DNA of 14,688 bases from Candidatus Thorarchaeota archaeon (GTDB taxonomy: Archaea; Asgardarchaeota; Thorarchaeia; Thorarchaeales; Thorarchaeaceae). Below the pieces are notes generated by a model that searched no databases, was not told the origin of the DNA, and worked only from the letters and a program-made list of their open reading frames with translations. Location: the NCBI GenBank assembly GCA_003345555.1, contig PRDJ01000027.1, positions 1-14,688 of the forward strand, written 5' to 3'. Both the position numbers and the translations under genes were made by a program. Below are positions 6,057 through 14,688 of the stretch, piece by piece. How positions within the stretch are numbered: the first letter of the stretch is position 1; each line of letters opens with the position of its first letter.

Positions 6057-6097
6057 AGCTATGAGAGCGCGGAGCTTTGCGCCCGGGTGCTTCTCCC

Positions 6098-6658
6098 ATG
6101 GTAGACCTTCCAGCATCAGTGATTAAGACCAGAGGTTTGCTTACACTTCGTGGCTACAAGGTCGATGAGCTCTTTGAGTATGAGGACCGATACGTCATGC
6201 TCCCTGTGAAAGAGACAGGTGAAGGTGCTATCAAGTCGGTGGTCTGGATATTCAAGGAGGCGAAAGTCGTTGGCGTCGCGATAGTCAAGGACATCGCACG
6301 AGACATGGAAGAAGCCCAAGCTATTGAAGGAGTCCTAGTAGGCGGTTCTCGTTTCACTCCCGCTGCAAGGAAGTTCGCACGGGCGGCCAAGGTGGAACTC
6401 GTCGAGGGCACCTATTCCTCATTTGACCTGTTCCAGCATGAGCTGGTTCCAAAACACACCATCGTGAGTGATGAAGAGGTTCATATGGTTCTCGAGCACT
6501 ATGGGATCAAGAAGCCACAGCTTCCACGAATTCTGAGGGACGATCCCGCGGCGAAGGTACTAGGAGCCAAGGCAGGGCAAGTCATCCGTGTGGAACGTGA
6601 CAGCCCCACTGCTGGCAAGACATACTACTACCGCGTTGTTGTAGAGGCGAGTCGTTAG
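6098..6658 (+). CDS. rpoH: DNA-directed RNA polymerase subunit Rpo5/RpoH with an N-terminal RPB5 jaw-like (restriction-endonuclease fold) domain
   Basis: 186 aa. Residues from 109 onwards (FDLFQHELVPKHTIVSDEEV...QLPRILRDDPAAKVLGAKAGQVIRVERDSPTAGKTYYYRVV) are a classic RpoH/RPB5 C-terminal domain. The ~105-aa N-terminal extension has LRGYKV, KVVGVAIVK and FTPAARKFA. Confidence 0.93.
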   Translation: MVDLPASVIKTRGLLTLRGYKVDELFEYEDRYVMLPVKETGEGAIKSVVWIFKEAKVVGVAIVKDIARDMEEAQAIEGVLVGGSRFTPAARKFARAAKVELVEGTYSSFDLFQHELVPKHTIVSDEEVHMVLEHYGIKKPQLPRILRDDPAAKVLGAKAGQVIRVERDSPTAGKTYYYRVVVEASR

Positions 6659-7478: not shown

Positions 7479-8987
7479 TTATCGGGAATCATCCTGAGAG
7501 TTCTCAGCTGCCGAGACCTTGAGACCCGATTCCTCTGAGAGGGCACTGATGGCCTTATCGACAGAAGTCCTCAACATACTTACCTTTTCCCCTCTTGCAG
7601 AAACCCAGACTCTAAGAACCTTTGAAGATCCGTATGTTTTGGGCATAGACTTTATGTAAACCCCTGGATTCTTCTTCATCACCCTGTCAATGTACGGTGA
7701 GAATACGGTCTCGTCCGATATCTCAAAATCCACGATTCGTTCAAAGTAGTGTTGCGTGCTCTTCTTCTCTACCCACGGACGAACAGAGGTTTCGAAAATC
7801 GCTCTCAGTTCGCGAGGAACACCGGGCAGACAGAAAATCGTGGTTCTATCGTGAATGATCATGGCCCCTGGAGCCCCTCCGACCGTATTATCCATCGGAG
7901 ACGAACCCACAGGCAGACGTGCCATCTTCCTTCTGCTCTCGGTCAAGTCCGGGCTGGTGACTATTCCCTGTTCGTACAGATGTTGGTACTGCCTTTGAAC
8001 GATAGACAATGCAGCTGGGTCTTCTTCAAGTTGAAGCCCGAGAGCTGATGCAATTGCGCTGAGTGTCATGTCATCGTGAGTGGGGCCGAGACCTCCTGAG
8101 GTGATGATAACATTGCAGGTCTCTCTTAGGTACGCAAGCCCTCTACCTATTTCGGCAATAGTGTCTCTGACCGAAGTCTGTCTCTCAACGATGACGCCCA
8201 ATGCTGCAAGGCGGAGCTCCATCCAATTCCCATTCGTGTCCAAGATCACGCCATCCAAGACCTCGTCGCCTATTGTCATTATCCCCGCCTTGAGCTGTGT
8301 GGCAGACTCGGCCTTCTTGGTAGGCGCTGCTGTAGGAGCTACAGTTCGATGCAACTCCGCATCCAGATAGCCGCTCACGGTCTTCAGGTGCTGCAGTCTC
8401 GAACCTGCAACCTGCTTCGCCGCTTGTGTACTCATGCTTGCTGCGATTCTCTCGGCCAGAGGGATGAAGCCCCGAATCTCATGGGCAATTCCCTCCATGT
8501 CCATACCTGGCTTCAGCTTAATGCCATTCAATATATAGTGAACCAACCCTACGATGCCCAATTTCACTAGCTTGTCAGCTTCCCAGAGAGCCTGAGCTTC
8601 AGGTGTGGTCAATGGACCATCCAAGGTAAGGCCAACATGCATCCTAATCGCATCGCACACGCGGTCTATCGTTATTCGGTCAATCCCCTCTTTCGTCAGG
8701 ATTTCCCGTGCGGCTATTGCGCTTGCCTCCCCGTGGTTCGAATCGCCGCCGATGCCAGGTTTTGATATATCGTGGAGCCACGCCGCCATCGTGACCACGT
8801 CGAGGTTTGCACCCGTCTGCTGGGCAAGGTATTTCGAGATTTGGACCACCTGACCCACGTGGTCAAAGCGATAGTCAAACAGAGGAACTAATGCCGAAGG
8901 CTGTGCCTTTGTCCATTCGTCGCGAGCAACAGCCGCGCATTGCGAGGATAGGAGGGCTTCGAGTTTCTCTTCCAGTCCCTGTTTCAT
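7479..8987 (-). CDS. Fusion of an HD-domain metal-dependent phosphohydrolase and a CinA N-terminal/molybdopterin-binding-like (COG1058-type) domain
   Basis: N-terminal YRFDH...AAWLHDISK...NHG...IRMH...EADK (HD at 8769-8774). An Ala/Pro/Thr linker at about 8292-8350 is followed by IMTIGDEVLDGVILDTN, ITSGGLGPTHDDMT, NTVGGAPG and LPGVPREL. No PncC deamidase domain. Start ATG 8987 or GTG 8996. Confidence 0.85.
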   Translation of the reverse strand: MKQGLEEKLEALLSSQCAAVARDEWTKAQPSALVPLFDYRFDHVGQVVQISKYLAQQTGANLDVVTMAAWLHDISKPGIGGDSNHGEASAIAAREILTKEGIDRITIDRVCDAIRMHVGLTLDGPLTTPEAQALWEADKLVKLGIVGLVHYILNGIKLKPGMDMEGIAHEIRGFIPLAERIAASMSTQAAKQVAGSRLQHLKTVSGYLDAELHRTVAPTAAPTKKAESATQLKAGIMTIGDEVLDGVILDTNGNWMELRLAALGVIVERQTSVRDTIAEIGRGLAYLRETCNVIITSGGLGPTHDDMTLSAIASALGLQLEEDPAALSIVQRQYQHLYEQGIVTSPDLTESRRKMARLPVGSSPMDNTVGGAPGAMIIHDRTTIFCLPGVPRELRAIFETSVRPWVEKKSTQHYFERIVDFEISDETVFSPYIDRVMKKNPGVYIKSMPKTYGSSKVLRVWVSARGEKVSMLRTSVDKAISALSEESGLKVSAAENSQDDSR

Positions 8988-9031
8988 GAGCACCACTGAG
9001 GCTGCTGACGTTCAGTTGTTTATGAACCCTA

Positions 9032-10027: not shown

Positions 10028-11113
10028 TTGAGAAGACTCATAGTCTTGGTGACAGGTTCTAGCGGAACCTCCTACGGCGATATAGTTAGAGCACTCAAGT
10101 CAAGCAAGAGATACCGAATCGATGTCGTTGGCAGCGATTGTCGAGAATCGCTGAGTTCGAAACACTATGTGAAAAGGAATTACTTGCTACCAGACAACAG
10201 AAACCCAGAGTTCGCGAACGCACTGCTTGACCTGTGCGTCAGACAGAAAATCGATATTGTGTTGCCCACTCAGACAGGAGACCAATTGCCGATTTGCGAG
10301 AGGCTCGGAGACTTCCGGGATGCAAATGTTGAACCTGCTCTGATAGTAACCGACCCATTCTTGCTCGACGTGATCCTCAACAAGCGAAAGATGTTGGAGT
10401 ACTGTAAGGAGATAATACGCATTGAAACCCCTTCATATTCCTACGCTGACACTTCCGAGGGCCTAAGAAGAGCTGTTCAGAGACTTGGGCACCCCGAAAT
10501 ACCAGTCGTAGTCAAGCCGAGCTTTGCAGATGGCGGTCGTGGTACAAGGATCCTGAATGAGCGTGTTGACGCAAGACGACGATTTCTCTCAGAAAAGCCA
10601 GATTCTACTTTCAGCTCTCTGAATCGAGTTCTGAACACAATAGGCGACTCATTCCCCGAGATGCTGGTCATGGAGTATCTGCCGGGCAAAGAATACATGC
10701 TCGATACCTTGTGCAGAAAGGGCAAGACCTTTGCCGTAATCCCCGAAATAGTAACGCGGAATGCTGAAGGCGTCACCACAGGCGGTGTTGTCTCAAAGGA
10801 TGACAACTTTGATTCGCTCGTTAGAGTAGCAGAATCTGTCATCGAAGGCTTTGGACTCTCCTATAGCGTCATCGTGCATCTGAAGGAAAACGCATCAGGC
10901 AAACCGTCAGTGCTGGGAATCCATCCGGGACTTCAGGACACGACTGTCATAAGCATAGCCGCGGGCGTCAACATTCCCGAACTTATGGTCATGATGGCTT
11001 GTCGTGAATTTGACTATGCTTACTCGCCTAGGATTGCCTGGGGCCTAAAGATGCAAAGAGTATGGCGTGAGGTCTTTGAATATGGCGGAAAAATCTGGAC
11101 AAGTGACAAGTAG
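10028..11113 (+). CDS. ATP-grasp fold protein 1 (carbamoyl-phosphate-synthase-like family found in glycan clusters); catalytic motif degenerate
   Basis: N-terminal Rossmann-like LIVLVTG, NK, VVKP, DGGRG and MEYLPGKEY are present. The ExNPR motif is replaced by GIHPG. TTG start with GAGG upstream. Confidence 0.85.
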   Translation: MRRLIVLVTGSSGTSYGDIVRALKSSKRYRIDVVGSDCRESLSSKHYVKRNYLLPDNRNPEFANALLDLCVRQKIDIVLPTQTGDQLPICERLGDFRDANVEPALIVTDPFLLDVILNKRKMLEYCKEIIRIETPSYSYADTSEGLRRAVQRLGHPEIPVVVKPSFADGGRGTRILNERVDARRRFLSEKPDSTFSSLNRVLNTIGDSFPEMLVMEYLPGKEYMLDTLCRKGKTFAVIPEIVTRNAEGVTTGGVVSKDDNFDSLVRVAESVIEGFGLSYSVIVHLKENASGKPSVLGIHPGLQDTTVISIAAGVNIPELMVMMACREFDYAYSPRIAWGLKMQRVWREVFEYGGKIWTSDK

Positions 11114-11519
11114 AACCTTGGTGGTGCTGGACTTTGACCAGACAGTACTACGCACTGGACACGAAGAAGATGGTTCTGCCGTCTTGCTGAAGCTTAAAGG
11201 AATGGGCGTCGAGCTTTGCATCGCATCAAGAAACGACAGGTACTCTTTGCATCGAAAGCTCGAGTCGCTATTCATAGACCGAGCCTTTCGGTATGTTATG
11301 TCGGACTTCAGGCCAAAGTTCTATCAGATGAGACACATCCTATGGTTGTATTCAGGAAGCGGTATCGTGTTCTCTAGAGTAATCTTCGTTGATGACGACT
11401 TGCAGAACATCGAACAGATGAAAGCTAATGTACCGAACATTGATTGCTACCAGATGGGAGTCGACTTGCAGGGAATCCAGGATCTGCCAAGAGTGGTTGT
11501 ATCGGATGGGTCTGATTAA
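11082..11519 (+). CDS. HAD-superfamily phosphatase, MDP-1-like (subfamily IIIC, capless)
   Basis: Motif I LDFDQT, motif II IASRN, Lys in RPK, motif IV IFVDDD..N. Overlaps the end of ATP-grasp 1, suggesting translational coupling. Alternative start GTG 11103. Confidence 0.85.
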   Translation: MAEKSGQVTSRTLVVLDFDQTVLRTGHEEDGSAVLLKLKGMGVELCIASRNDRYSLHRKLESLFIDRAFRYVMSDFRPKFYQMRHILWLYSGSGIVFSRVIFVDDDLQNIEQMKANVPNIDCYQMGVDLQGIQDLPRVVVSDGSD

Positions 11520-11750
11520 TGCCGCTTCGTGATAATCCATGTCGTAACCTAGTCTACGCGGTCAAAGCCAGATGTATTATGCCTCGTCATATGAGATGCA
11601 TCTGCTCGTAAGGTCTTGGTGGGCTCCCCGCAGATCGTACTGGGATACGCCCTAAGATACGACTCGCTGAGAGGAAGCGAGCCTCGGCTCAACAACACAC
11701 ATACTGATAGTGAATGACACAGATGCTGCAAGCGGTGTGCACGCCAATGA

Positions 11751-11766
11751 TGAAAAGGCTTTAAGT
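11751..11766 (+). promoter_or_regulatory. Putative BRE-TATA promoter of ATP-grasp 2
   Basis: TGAAAAGGC followed by TTTAAGT (11760-11766), about 50 nt upstream of ATG 11815; purine-rich BRE next to the TATA. Confidence 0.55.
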
Positions 11767-11814
11767 CCCAGACAGGCTTCACGAGCCAGAATCTGATTCC
11801 TCCGTCGTGGTCTT

Positions 11815-12891
11815 ATGCGAAAGCATGTGAAGTTGCTGCTAACTGGCTTTTGCGCGCCGGGCTTCGCAAGCATCGTCTACGCTCTCAGAAAAAGCGCACT
11901 CTATCAATTCTATGTCTTCTCTACGGACTGGAAACCAAACCTCGCGGCAAGCTTCGCGGACAAGTCTGAGGTGATCGGAGATGACCTCGCACCGGACTGG
12001 CCAGACAGAATCATAGAGAGTGCCAGAAGAGAGAAGATCAAGGTCTTGGTTCCCATCCGTACAGACGACTTGGCACCACTTGCAAGGAATGTCAAGAGAC
12101 TCAAGGAGATTGGTGTAATACCTACACTGCCAACCGAGAATCCGGAACTCATCCAGACAATGACTAACAAAGGTGATGCATACGGTGCTCTTACCAAGCT
12201 TGGAATATCCGTGCCAAATCACTTCCGGGTGAACGATCTTGACAGCATGCGAGAAGCGGCATACTCTCTCGGATACCCTGACGTACCCGTGTGTGTCAAG
12301 CCCGTCGTCGCAGATGGAAGCAGAGGATTTCGGATTCTGAACGAAAAGATGGACAAGAAGAGACTATTCTTCCAAGAGAAACCTAGCTCGGTCCTTTCGG
12401 ACTTAGATTCTGTCTGTTCGGTTCTCGGGGATGAGTTCCCAGAAATGCTAGTAATGGAGTATCTCCCAGGGAAAGAATACACGGTTGATGTCCTATGCAG
12501 AGAGGGGACAACCTACACAGTAGTTCCAAGACTTAGGACACAGATGACGGCGGGAATCTCCACTGATGCTGTGCTTTCCAAAGACGAGCACTATGGATAC
12601 ATCTGCGAACTTTCGGAGAAGATAGTCCGGGGATTCAGACTGTCATACAACATTGGGGTTCAGGTGAGAGAGGACAGAAATGGCAATCCCAAGATCTTGG
12701 AGATTAACCCAAGATTGCAGGGTACAACGATAATTAGTGTAGAAGGGGGTGTGAACATACCTGAACTCATGGTCCAAATGGCACTCGGGGATTTCAATCC
12801 GGACTACAGGCCAGAAATCAAGTGGGGTCTTAAGCTTCACAGGGTATATAGAGAGATATTCGAGCTTGAAGGCAAAGTGTGGACAACGTGA
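11815..12891 (+). CDS. ATP-grasp fold protein 2, probable ATP-dependent carboxylate-amine ligase with intact motifs
   Basis: KLLLTG, NK, CVKP, DGSRG, MEYLPGKEYTVD, VVPRLR..AGIS and the canonical LEINPRLQG. Clear paralogue of 10028-11113. Confidence 0.9.
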   Translation: MRKHVKLLLTGFCAPGFASIVYALRKSALYQFYVFSTDWKPNLAASFADKSEVIGDDLAPDWPDRIIESARREKIKVLVPIRTDDLAPLARNVKRLKEIGVIPTLPTENPELIQTMTNKGDAYGALTKLGISVPNHFRVNDLDSMREAAYSLGYPDVPVCVKPVVADGSRGFRILNEKMDKKRLFFQEKPSSVLSDLDSVCSVLGDEFPEMLVMEYLPGKEYTVDVLCREGTTYTVVPRLRTQMTAGISTDAVLSKDEHYGYICELSEKIVRGFRLSYNIGVQVREDRNGNPKILEINPRLQGTTIISVEGGVNIPELMVQMALGDFNPDYRPEIKWGLKLHRVYREIFELEGKVWTT

Positions 12892-12966
12892 TGGACCCGG
12901 AACAGACAACGTGAGCATGATTCTTTCATGAACGTGCTGTTGAGGATAGCGAAGCAAACAAGGACC

Positions 12967-13674
12967 CTAGCCCTCGGATTGTGATCGGCGGGCAAGGCGA
13001 TGCCTGCCGTTGTCGCGTGTTTGGTCTATGTTTAGTGTTCCCTTTACTAGTATGAAGGCCTCAGCAAACCTTGCATTTATGTAGACGCCCCTGCTACGCA
13101 TTTCAGCCCAGAAGTTTTCCAGGTTGAACCAGTTGCCACGGAACTTGAGCTGGGTTTCATAGCACGAAATTGCCTTAATCTTGAGGTCAGCCTCCTCGTG
13201 GCTCACAGGTATGTACAGGTTCGGATTGAAGTCCTTTGAAGTACCTATGACGGGATATTGAAGTATTGTGACAGGGTGCCTCGTGGACGCTCTGAGAGCC
13301 TCTTCAGCAACTGTCTGGTGGTCCTGATGAAAGTCACCCACGTAGGGTGCAATGACCAAATCCAGCTTCTCGTTCTTTCTGTATCCGTATATTATATCCA
13401 ATATCTCCTGTCTTGAATTCCCAAGGTGTTTGTTTTCGAAATCATACTGGACGATGTCTTCGACTCCGAGGACCGATGCCGCAGCGATGTCCTCCCTCGC
13501 GATGGTTCCCTTGGGATATCCTGTCCCTTCAAGCGTATCATCGCATGTGCAGAATACCCTGTACAAGACTTTGCATCCATGCTGGACCAACTTGTACATC
13601 AGCACACCGGCACCTGTTATCGCATCGTCTGTGTGAGGTGAAAGCACTAACGCCTCTCTAAACCGGACACTCAT
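12967..13674 (-). CDS. PIG-L/LmbE family N-acetylglucosaminyl de-N-acetylase
   Basis: Zn-binding motifs SPHTDD and FHQDH, plus KIKAISCYETQ and AEAF; 235 aa. Confidence 0.9.
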   Translation of the reverse strand: MSVRFREALVLSPHTDDAITGAGVLMYKLVQHGCKVLYRVFCTCDDTLEGTGYPKGTIAREDIAAASVLGVEDIVQYDFENKHLGNSRQEILDIIYGYRKNEKLDLVIAPYVGDFHQDHQTVAEEALRASTRHPVTILQYPVIGTSKDFNPNLYIPVSHEEADLKIKAISCYETQLKFRGNWFNLENFWAEMRSRGVYINARFAEAFILVKGTLNIDQTRDNGRHRLARRSQSEG

Positions 13675-13812
13675 CAGTCTCTTCTCCGTCAGTTAGGCGG
13701 TTCCTGTGAAGGCGAATAATAGCCTTTCTATGAAGGAGATGTCTACACATCAGATGCGTCATCCTGTCTATCAAAAGAGTTAAGGAGCGTCATCAACCTG
13801 CGCAGTCATGAC

Positions 13813-14688
13813 ATGCCCGGGTATCAGACTCTGAACCTGCTTGTTGTTGGTCCCTATGGCGAAACAACGAGTGGTCCTTCAAGAGTTATAACTGAGGTAG
13901 TTCACGGCCTGTCCTCTGATATTCATGTTGTTGTTGTTTCTCCCAAGAAGAGGCGAGATGTGGACCGGAGAGGTTTCGTCGATGGAAACGTTGAGGTTGT
14001 TTATCAGGCATGCGGACAGGTACCTGGGGTTCCTGGGTCGCACAATCTAGTCGAGATTCTCAGACTGGCGTCTCGCCTGAGAAGACTTGAGTACAAGCCA
14101 AACCTCGTGTGGGTTCACAGCGAGGCGGCATTCTGGGCCTACTGGCTCTCAAAGTTCAGAAGAACGCCCTGCGTGGCAACGATTCATGGCGTGTTCGGCG
14201 ATTTCTATCAACGCGAGACCATGCTGAAGCTGAGAGCATCTCCGAGCCATCTGTTCTCATCTCTCATGCGGTGGCTGCAGAAGACTGAGTTCAGGAAAGC
14301 CTCGGTGCTCACCACTTATTCAGACTACCTCGGTCAGTTGATCCTAGCAATAAGCCCTCGGTCAAGAGTTGTTATCATACCCAACGGAGTGAACACAACG
14401 AGATTCCAGCCACTGAATGAACCCCGGGAGAAAATCATCCTCTACGTGGGCCGCATGGCTGCCATAAAAGGGGTGCATGTTCTTGTGGAAAGTATGAAGA
14501 AGGTGGCTCGACGTCTCCCTGAATGGAGACTCTGGTTGGTTGGAGGGGCTCTGGACCAGCCCATTTCGTTCTTCGAAAGATTCATGGACTCCTCAACCCG
14601 GCAACGAATCGAATTCCTAGGGGCGATATCGAATGCAGAACTTCCAGGGCTTCTCAGCAGAGCAAGCATCTTTGTCATGCCGACTCTA
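13813..14688 (+). CDS. GT4 (GT-B fold) glycosyltransferase; 3'-truncated and absent from the supplied ORF track
   Basis: My translation from ATG 13813 is open to the window end: MPGYQTLNLLVVGPYGETTSGPSRV...VWVHS...VATIHG...VIIPNGVNTTRF...ILYVGRMAAIKGVHVL...IEFLG...LLSRASIFVMPT. These are typical GT4 motifs. Confidence 0.92.
   Translation, partial: MPGYQTLNLLVVGPYGETTSGPSRVITEVVHGLSSDIHVVVVSPKKRRDVDRRGFVDGNVEVVYQACGQVPGVPGSHNLVEILRLASRLRRLEYKPNLVWVHSEAAFWAYWLSKFRRTPCVATIHGVFGDFYQRETMLKLRASPSHLFSSLMRWLQKTEFRKASVLTTYSDYLGQLILAISPRSRVVIIPNGVNTTRFQPLNEPREKIILYVGRMAAIKGVHVLVESMKKVARRLPEWRLWLVGGALDQPISFFERFMDSSTRQRIEFLGAISNAELPGLLSRASIFVMPTL

Follow-up and report, generated by a model that had tools for sequence, protein, structure and literature searches.

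The window analyzed here, the entire 14,688-bp contig C27 of a Candidatus Thorarchaeota metagenome-assembled genome (2.28 Mb, 82 contigs), ends with five genes encoding two ATP-grasp paralogues (AG1 and AG2), a small HAD phosphatase, a PIG-L/LmbE-family zinc de-N-acetylase and a glycosyltransferase (GT) of family GT4. We observed that the order PIG-L, ATP-grasp, phosphatase is conserved in many lineages, in the context of glycan loci, and that one of the two ATP-grasp proteins has lost its catalytic motif. We propose, with a probability of about one half, that this module exchanges the N-acetyl group of an amino sugar in a cell-surface glycan for another acid. A previous interpretation (the sequence-only reading) had named the five genes, and all five open reading frames are indeed present where it placed them and match the families it assigned in Pfam and NCBIfam. 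The features are as follows.

10028..11113, plus strand: AG1, ATP-grasp paralogue of 361 aa (PF15632 ATPgrasp_Ter, 9e-17; PylC-like_N)
11067..11519, plus strand: small cap-less HAD phosphatase of about 145-150 aa (HAD-IIIC TIGR01681, 1.7e-7)
11520..11814, no strand: spacer of 295 bp between the HAD and AG2 genes (comparison with metagenome contig L109)
11815..12891, plus strand: AG2, intact ATP-grasp protein of 358 aa (PF15632, 2.7e-32)
12967..13674, minus strand: PIG-L/LmbE-family zinc de-N-acetylase of 235 aa (PF02585, 2.9e-13)
13675..13812, no strand: intergenic region of 138 bp between the divergent PIG-L and GT4 genes (sequence read directly)
13813..14688, plus strand: GT4, first 292 of 385 residues (Glyco_transf_4, 1.5e-18; Glycos_transf_1)

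The PIG-L gene is oriented towards AG2 and away from GT4, and the 138-bp region is presumably a promoter region shared by PIG-L and GT4.

The conservation of the cluster was evaluated by a scan with the ATP-grasp alignment, one genome being taken per species. It returned 80 loci, in which open reading frames were called mechanically and all neighbours were clustered. The loci come from Asgard archaea, Halobacteria, Thermoplasmata, Methanosarcinales, Bathyarchaeia, Nitrososphaerota, Bacteroidota, Bacillota, Patescibacteria, Campylobacterota and others. Of these loci, 58 contain PIG-L. In about 46 of the 80 it lies immediately upstream of the ATP-grasp gene on the same strand, often overlapping its start, and these loci are spread over Asgard archaea, Halobacteria, Thermoplasmata, Methanosarcinales, Bathyarchaeia, Bacteroidota, Bacillota, Patescibacteria and others. 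In 41/67 loci the next gene behind ATP-grasp encodes a phosphatase of the PHP (17), HAD_2 (17) or HAD-IIIC-like (7) type; a Pfam check confirmed all 47 members of the phosphatase clusters. These data indicate that the adjacency of PIG-L, ATP-grasp and phosphatase exceeds chance. Since three families are swapped in the phosphatase slot, the phosphatase step itself appears to be selected. Furthermore, a glycosyltransferase directly precedes PIG-L in 22 of the 32 scorable loci (GT4 in 17, one of them in a cluster of its own, DUF354 GT-B in three and GT2 in two), different families filling this slot in different lineages; in the Thor relatives, GT2 and GT4-like genes flank PIG-L. The neighbourhood also contains GT2 and GT4 genes, Wzx-type flippases, YfhO, Bac_transf, DegT, GFO/IDH/MocA and UDP-sugar 6-dehydrogenase, together with LbH acetyltransferase, Epimerase_2 (UDP-GlcNAc 2-epimerase), AsnB-like amidotransferase, methyltransferases and WbqC. 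The sequence-only reading had made its pathway depend on co-occurrence in other genomes, and PIG-L, ATP-grasp and phosphatase do co-occur in many phyla of both domains. It had also regarded a surface glycan as the most conservative option, which the GT2/GT4, flippase and nucleotide-sugar genes around the module favour.

Of the two ATP-grasp copies, AG2 is likely the working ligase and the only one that looks active. Alignment of AG2 with 96 homologues yielded 47 positions conserved in at least 90% of the sequences. AG2 retains all 47, the EINPR motif included, while AG1 deviates at 12 of them. The E-x-N-x-R site, responsible for Mg and acyl-phosphate binding in ATP-grasp enzymes, is altered in AG1 by E296G, N298H and R300G (GIHPG in place of the family EINPR), and R239E, R241V and Q283H are further changes. 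Because this catalytic motif is lost, AG1 is probably catalytically dead. AG2 combines the fold and the motif of an ATP-grasp carboxylate-amine ligase and AG1 lacks the motif, so that one of the two supposed ligases is probably inactive. The AlphaFold2 model of AG2 (pLDDT 96) matched best the structure 2pn1 (TM 0.79 on target), an Exiguobacterium protein described as 'carbamoylphosphate synthase large subunit (split gene in MJ)', and then biotin carboxylases, PurT/PurK and L-amino-acid ligases; this fold search returned only generic ATP-grasp neighbours and one uncharacterised structure, 2pn1, and gave no hint of the substrate. At the sequence level the window ATP-grasps match PF15632/PylC-like models alone among ligase families, and solved ligases of known function include no close sequence relative. 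Their best models are PF15632 and PRK12767, the NCBIfam 'carbamoyl phosphate synthase-like protein', on which they reach at most 97 bits, well below its cut-offs of 218-390. Neither 2pn1 nor PRK12767 nor PF15632 has an assigned substrate.

A quick tree of the ATP-grasp proteins groups those linked to a HAD-IIIC-type phosphatase into a single clade (support 100). AG1 is nested in it among the Thor orthologues on a long branch (0.70); it is the syntenic copy, coupled to the HAD gene. AG2 pairs (support 100; 62% identity) with a copy of a second genome, G020, which belongs to another genus and whose contig C176 carries this AG2-type gene co-transcribed with PIG-L. G020 also has a degenerate AG1-type copy (C278:2373-3300, L114; also L018:5613-5885), with FDVIPH for LEINPR, which overlaps a HAD gene. 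The same pattern in G020 shows that the dead copy has been retained beside the phosphatase in two genera.

The same tree over the scanned loci (L021-L100) displays strong mixing of the two domains. Thermococci fall with Saccharibacteria, Methanosarcinales with an unclassified bacterium, Flavobacteriaceae within an archaeal group and Methanomassiliicoccales with Heimdall. This mixing points to frequent transfer of the module.

The other enzymes of the window were analyzed in the same manner. Besides HAD-IIIC, the phosphatase matches MDP-1 (1e-4), Acid_PPase (3e-4) and the MDP-1 structure in the PDB (4e-4), the family models remaining below their curated cut-offs; it carries the motifs of a HAD phosphatase, DFDQT (DxDxT), IASRN and VDDD. 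Its gene overlaps the end of AG1, and translation may actually begin at the ATG at 11082. Orthologues of it stand directly after the ATP-grasp gene in seven related loci. The deacetylase scores 50.9 bits on PF02585 (gathering cut-off 28.2) and has the metal and base motifs of the superfamily, PHTDD at residues 13-17 and HQDH at residues 116-119; its best PDB match is an archaeal diacetylchitobiose deacetylase (8e-9).

Since C27 is a whole contig, GT4 is interrupted at residue 292, and the 3′ end of C27 showed no overlap with any other contig end of its genome. The complete gene was obtained from L109, a Joint Genome Institute metagenome contig which is 98.6% identical to the window over 3,097 bp and extends 466 bp further. 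The full-length protein (L109:2240-3397, 385 aa) matches Glyco_transf_4 and Glycos_transf_1 at 67 and 94 bits, as expected of a GT4 enzyme. Pfam scans of the partial and the full-length protein found these generic GT4/GT1 domains only and no PIG-A-specific domain; the best PDB sequence matches include sucrose-phosphate synthase, PimA, MshA and BshA, weakly. A further open reading frame of 62 aa (L109:3394-3579) begins on the GT4 stop codon and is translationally coupled to it. It appeared GT2-like by eye, and this assignment was dropped as it gave no significant match in Pfam, PDB sequences or the cluster hidden Markov models.

The sequence-only reading had taken GT4 as a partner in the pathway. 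This part did not hold, as the window GT4 has no orthologue beside the module in relatives: among 40 relatives searched no close orthologue was found, and the GT4 orthologues (53-63%) of other Thor/Sif genomes lie on contigs whose lengths match none of those with ATP-grasp orthologues, a weak negative that covers only the longest contig per record. The window GT4 was also not taken as the cognate transferase, because a hidden Markov model of the GT4s found upstream of PIG-L elsewhere ranks C78:9246-10463 best in the genome. A cut GT4 gene that opens contig C78 was considered as the continuation of the window gene and rejected as a different gene. C78:1-25456 is itself a glycan locus, in which at least five GT4 genes occur along with one for a UDP-sugar 6-dehydrogenase (C78:24095-25456).

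The tight coupling of PIG-L and ATP-grasp speaks for a ligase that acts on the amine released by PIG-L. The phosphatase slot immediately behind the ligase, which three families occupy, speaks for a phosphate on the ligated substrate that is taken off last. The conserved linkage thus supports a logic of deacetylation, re-acylation and dephosphorylation; the substrate, the order of the steps, the acid and the role of AG1 are what we infer here. A neighbouring glycosyltransferase would put an N-acetylhexosamine, most likely N-acetylglucosamine (GlcNAc), on an acceptor at the cytoplasmic side. PIG-L would then strip the N-acetyl group, and AG2 would activate a carboxylic acid as acyl phosphate and couple it to the freed amine. 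The small HAD enzyme would remove the phosphate carried by the substrate through ligation; this phosphate could belong to the acceptor or enter with the acid, which would then be a phospho-hydroxy or phospho-amino acid. AG1 would be a dead paralogue beside the phosphatase, possibly a partner without catalytic function. Together these steps would yield an N-acyl-swapped hexosamine for a cell-surface glycoconjugate. Deacetylation followed by re-acylation is known chemistry from the synthesis of mycothiol, bacillithiol and lipid A. In the capsule of Campylobacter jejuni HS:2, an ATP-dependent amide ligase (the C-terminal amidoligase of Cj1438) followed by a HAD phosphatase (Cj1435), which removes the phosphate of the ligated substrate, is proven logic on the growing glycan (PMC11800397). 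That system differs in that the carboxylate belongs to glucuronate, the amine is a phospho-amine and no deacetylase takes part; what the two have in common is the succession of a ligase and a HAD phosphatase only.

Several points weigh against the acyl exchange. The canonical operon is broken in the window, where the PIG-L and AG2 genes converge and HAD is linked to the dead AG1, and the end of the contig cuts off the rest of the locus. The window GT4 is not a conserved partner of the module, and a gene that would provide the acid was not found. Genes of uronic-acid synthesis recur in some loci, so that a uronamide, as described below, would also be conceivable. Finally, no publication was found in the searched library that combines ATP-grasp with the terms PIG-L, LmbE or deacetylase.

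The sequence-only reading had also suggested a thiol pathway resembling that of mycothiol or bacillithiol. In mycothiol synthesis GlcNAc is transferred, a phosphate is removed, a PIG-L/LmbE enzyme takes off the N-acetyl group, and the resulting amine is joined in an ATP-dependent amide bond. These four chemical roles, filled there by MshA (GT4), the MshA2 phosphatase, MshB and MshC, are the same as those proposed for the window genes; however, the window ligase is an ATP-grasp protein whereas MshC is class-I tRNA-synthetase-like, and the window context is a glycan locus. Similarly, bacillithiol synthesis (BshA, BshB, BshC) shares a GT4, a PIG-L-family deacetylase and a ligating enzyme, but differs by the low BshA and BshB1 scores of the window proteins and by the lack of BshC in the window. 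Membership was judged by the curated NCBIfam equivalog cut-offs. GT4 reached 21.1 bits on BshA (TIGR03999, cut-off 273.7) and 19.2 bits on MshA (TIGR03449, cut-off 462.5). For PIG-L the best curated model was BshB1, with 53.2 bits against a cut-off of 182.5, while BshB2 gave 17.9 bits against 195.25 and MshB (TIGR03445) no match at E <= 0.01. No BshC match was found among the window genes, nor any tRNA-synthetase-like (MshC-type) ligase in the window.

Another cluster of the same genome, on contig C1, is closer to bacillithiol synthesis (C1:43951-47676; L117:3951-7676), with an archaeal GlmM gene nearby. Its GT4 (C1:45705-46877, minus strand) exceeds the BshA cut-off with 372.4 bits against 273.7. 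The next gene (C1:43951-45690, minus strand, 579 aa) is the sole BshC-like gene of the genome, BshC being its only match at 51.6 bits, under the cut-off, and a divergent PIG-L gene (C1:47008-47676, plus strand) scores 85 bits on BshB1, also under the cut-off. The proteins of this cluster are only 23-24% identical to their window counterparts. BshA and BshC homologues have been noted in Asgard archaea, the archaeal ones clustering there (PMC7278568). Since the genome has a BshA-passing cluster on C1, a thiol made by the window genes is unlikely. The window thus probably does not encode a thiol pathway, as the MshA, BshA and BshB scores are missed widely and C1 has the better candidate.

We then weighed other products of the module. 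The foremost of them, which we nevertheless regard as unlikely, is a uronamide: ATP-grasp would amidate the C6 carboxylate of a uronic acid or HexNAc-uronic acid with a phosphorylated amine, the phosphatase would remove the phosphate, and PIG-L would target another group or serve only in the supply of the amine. The Cj1438C/Cj1435 pair is a precedent for it (PMC11800397), and genes for UDP-sugar 6-dehydrogenase, WbpA/B/E-like and AsnB-like proteins occur near the module in Haloferax, Heimdall, Methanomassiliicoccales and several Thor loci; the amine could be made by a decarboxylase dependent on pyridoxal phosphate (PLP), whose gene lies between PIG-L and ATP-grasp in Clostridia. However, only 9/80 loci, and none of those of Bacteroidales, have a UDP-sugar dehydrogenase within 6 kb, the window ATP-grasps match PF15632/PylC-like models only, without a close solved ligase of known function, and the link between PIG-L and ATP-grasp, the tightest and widest of all, is left unexplained. 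Ranked next, and likewise improbable, is a soluble aminoacyl-glucosaminide (a solute, cofactor or thiol) made by a mycothiol-like route, in which GlcNAc would be transferred to a phosphorylated alcohol or acid (inositol phosphate, glycerol phosphate or 3-phosphoglycerate), deacetylated, furnished with an amino acid and freed of its phosphate. Sucrose, trehalose, glucosylglycerate and mycothiol are established cases of synthesis by a glycosyltransferase paired with a HAD phosphatase, and the steps of a mycothiol-like route would follow the order of the genes (GT, PIG-L, ATP-grasp, phosphatase). The Bacteroidales have all four at a constant position beside housekeeping genes, and the weak PDB matches of GT4 include sucrose-phosphate synthase, PimA, MshA and BshA. 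Against it stand the additional glycosyltransferases, flippases and initiating transferases of most loci, the free exchange of the transferase type among GT4, DUF354 and GT2, the wide failure on the curated MshA, BshA and BshB scores, and the BshA-passing cluster that the genome already has on C1.

A glucosaminyl-lipid route resembling that of glycosylphosphatidylinositol (GPI) or of ArnD/NaxD is very unlikely, the least probable of the readings weighed. GlcNAc on archaetidylinositol or dolichyl phosphate would be deacetylated by PIG-L and re-acylated by ATP-grasp, then flipped and transferred. The founding member of PIG-L acts on GlcNAc-phosphatidylinositol, from which the Pfam name derives, and a GT4 beside a PIG-L-family deacetylase recalls the first steps of GPI synthesis (PIG-A, PIG-L); moreover, three loci have an LPG_synthase_TM gene immediately before PIG-L, Bacteroidales have YfhO-type GT-C genes, and in Thor relatives PIG-L is accompanied by small GT2 genes. 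However, the window GT4 is without the PIG-A-specific domain, the ligase and the phosphatase have no counterpart in GPI synthesis, the phosphatase step finds no obvious place, and all module proteins appear soluble. Taken more broadly, it is doubtful that the cassette of GT, PIG-L, ATP-grasp and phosphatase makes a non-glycan N-(amino/hydroxy)acyl-glucosaminide, either a soluble cofactor or solute or the precursor of a glucosamine-lipid anchor, which Asgard archaea would share with many other anaerobes and for which the Thor lineage would use a dedicated, non-catalytic ATP-grasp subunit. It is more doubtful still that the genome has no working pathway at all and that the window holds remnants of two modules, with a dead ligase, a rearranged order and an accidental adjacency of GT4. 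The degenerate AG1, the inversion of the PIG-L/AG2 operon with respect to G020 and a sharp divergence boundary in the HAD-AG2 spacer fit such decay, as does the failure to find the module in three genomes of the same genus searched (83-88% complete). Yet AG2, PIG-L, HAD and GT4 are of full length and keep their motifs, two strains differ at only 10 positions in 2.7 kb of coding sequence (AG2, PIG-L, GT4), and G020 has also kept a dead AG1-type copy with HAD and an AG2-type copy with PIG-L. The exchange of the N-acetyl group on a surface glycan remains the favoured reading.

The rearrangement was localized by comparison with relatives. In four of them the ATP-grasp gene (with PIG-L divergent from it) and HAD are followed on the opposite strand by genes for a CCG/Fe-S protein and a FAD-linked oxidase. 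In the window genome, contig C70 opens with this pair (C70:3-1653), namely the N-terminal 70 aa of the CCG/Fe-S protein, cut within the gene, and the FAD-linked oxidase, 68-78% identical to their kin. The position of the pair at the start of C70 places AG2, PIG-L, GT4 and the genes that follow between HAD and the pair, relative to the kin. It also suggests an order C27 ... C70 and a conserved link of the module to a glycolate/D-lactate-oxidase-like pair. The 10 coding differences mentioned above are those between the window and L109. The left part of the HAD-AG2 spacer (from 11594 onward) alone has 34 differences, corresponding to about 20% divergence. The change is sharp near 11737, to the right of which the two sequences are nearly identical for 3 kb. 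This boundary is probably a recombination or insertion junction, judging from the alignment, and fits a module boundary. The final 78 bp or so before AG2, with a TTTAAG box, are identical in L109 and are probably the AG2 promoter. The spacers gave no match to an RNA family in Rfam and no gene remnant.

The logic of the proposed reactions is already known, and it is the enzyme set, ATP-grasp and PIG-L with a phosphatase slot shared by three families, that appears to be new. Identification of the product would name a recurring, unannotated step of surface-glycan synthesis or a new glucosaminide, and would give a first function to the large PF15632/PRK12767 branch of 'carbamoyl-phosphate-synthase-like' proteins. 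The envelope chemistry of Asgard archaea, of which little is known, gains from the module, and the dead ATP-grasp kept beside a phosphatase in two genera offers a small, testable case of a pseudoenzyme.

Variants of the module were also noted. In Clostridia (L077, L078, L084-L087) the order is PIG-L, an Orn/DAP/Arg-type PLP decarboxylase, ATP-grasp and then GT2, without a phosphatase; either the ligated acid is processed by the decarboxylase or, as another possibility, the amine is produced by it. A protein cluster of about 250 aa without Pfam match (c7; for instance L051:6573-7346 and L062:6056-6796) is encoded directly beside PIG-L/ATP-grasp in nine loci of bacteria and haloarchaea. Cultured organisms with orthologues of the module enzymes include Haloferax sp. 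YSSS75, Paenibacillus eucommiae DSM 26048 and Ruminococcus sp. JL13D9.

Elsewhere, C27 encodes archaeal Nre, RpoH/Rpb5 and a FlaJ/T2SSF-like protein, and its nearest relatives are recorded as Thorarchaeota/Promethearchaeota. Both observations indicate that the cluster comes from an Asgard archaeon and not from a bacterial contaminant. The RpoH gene (6077-6658) encodes an N-terminal Mrr_cat-like domain, and in the product of 7479-8996 an HD domain is fused to a CinA/MoCF-type domain.

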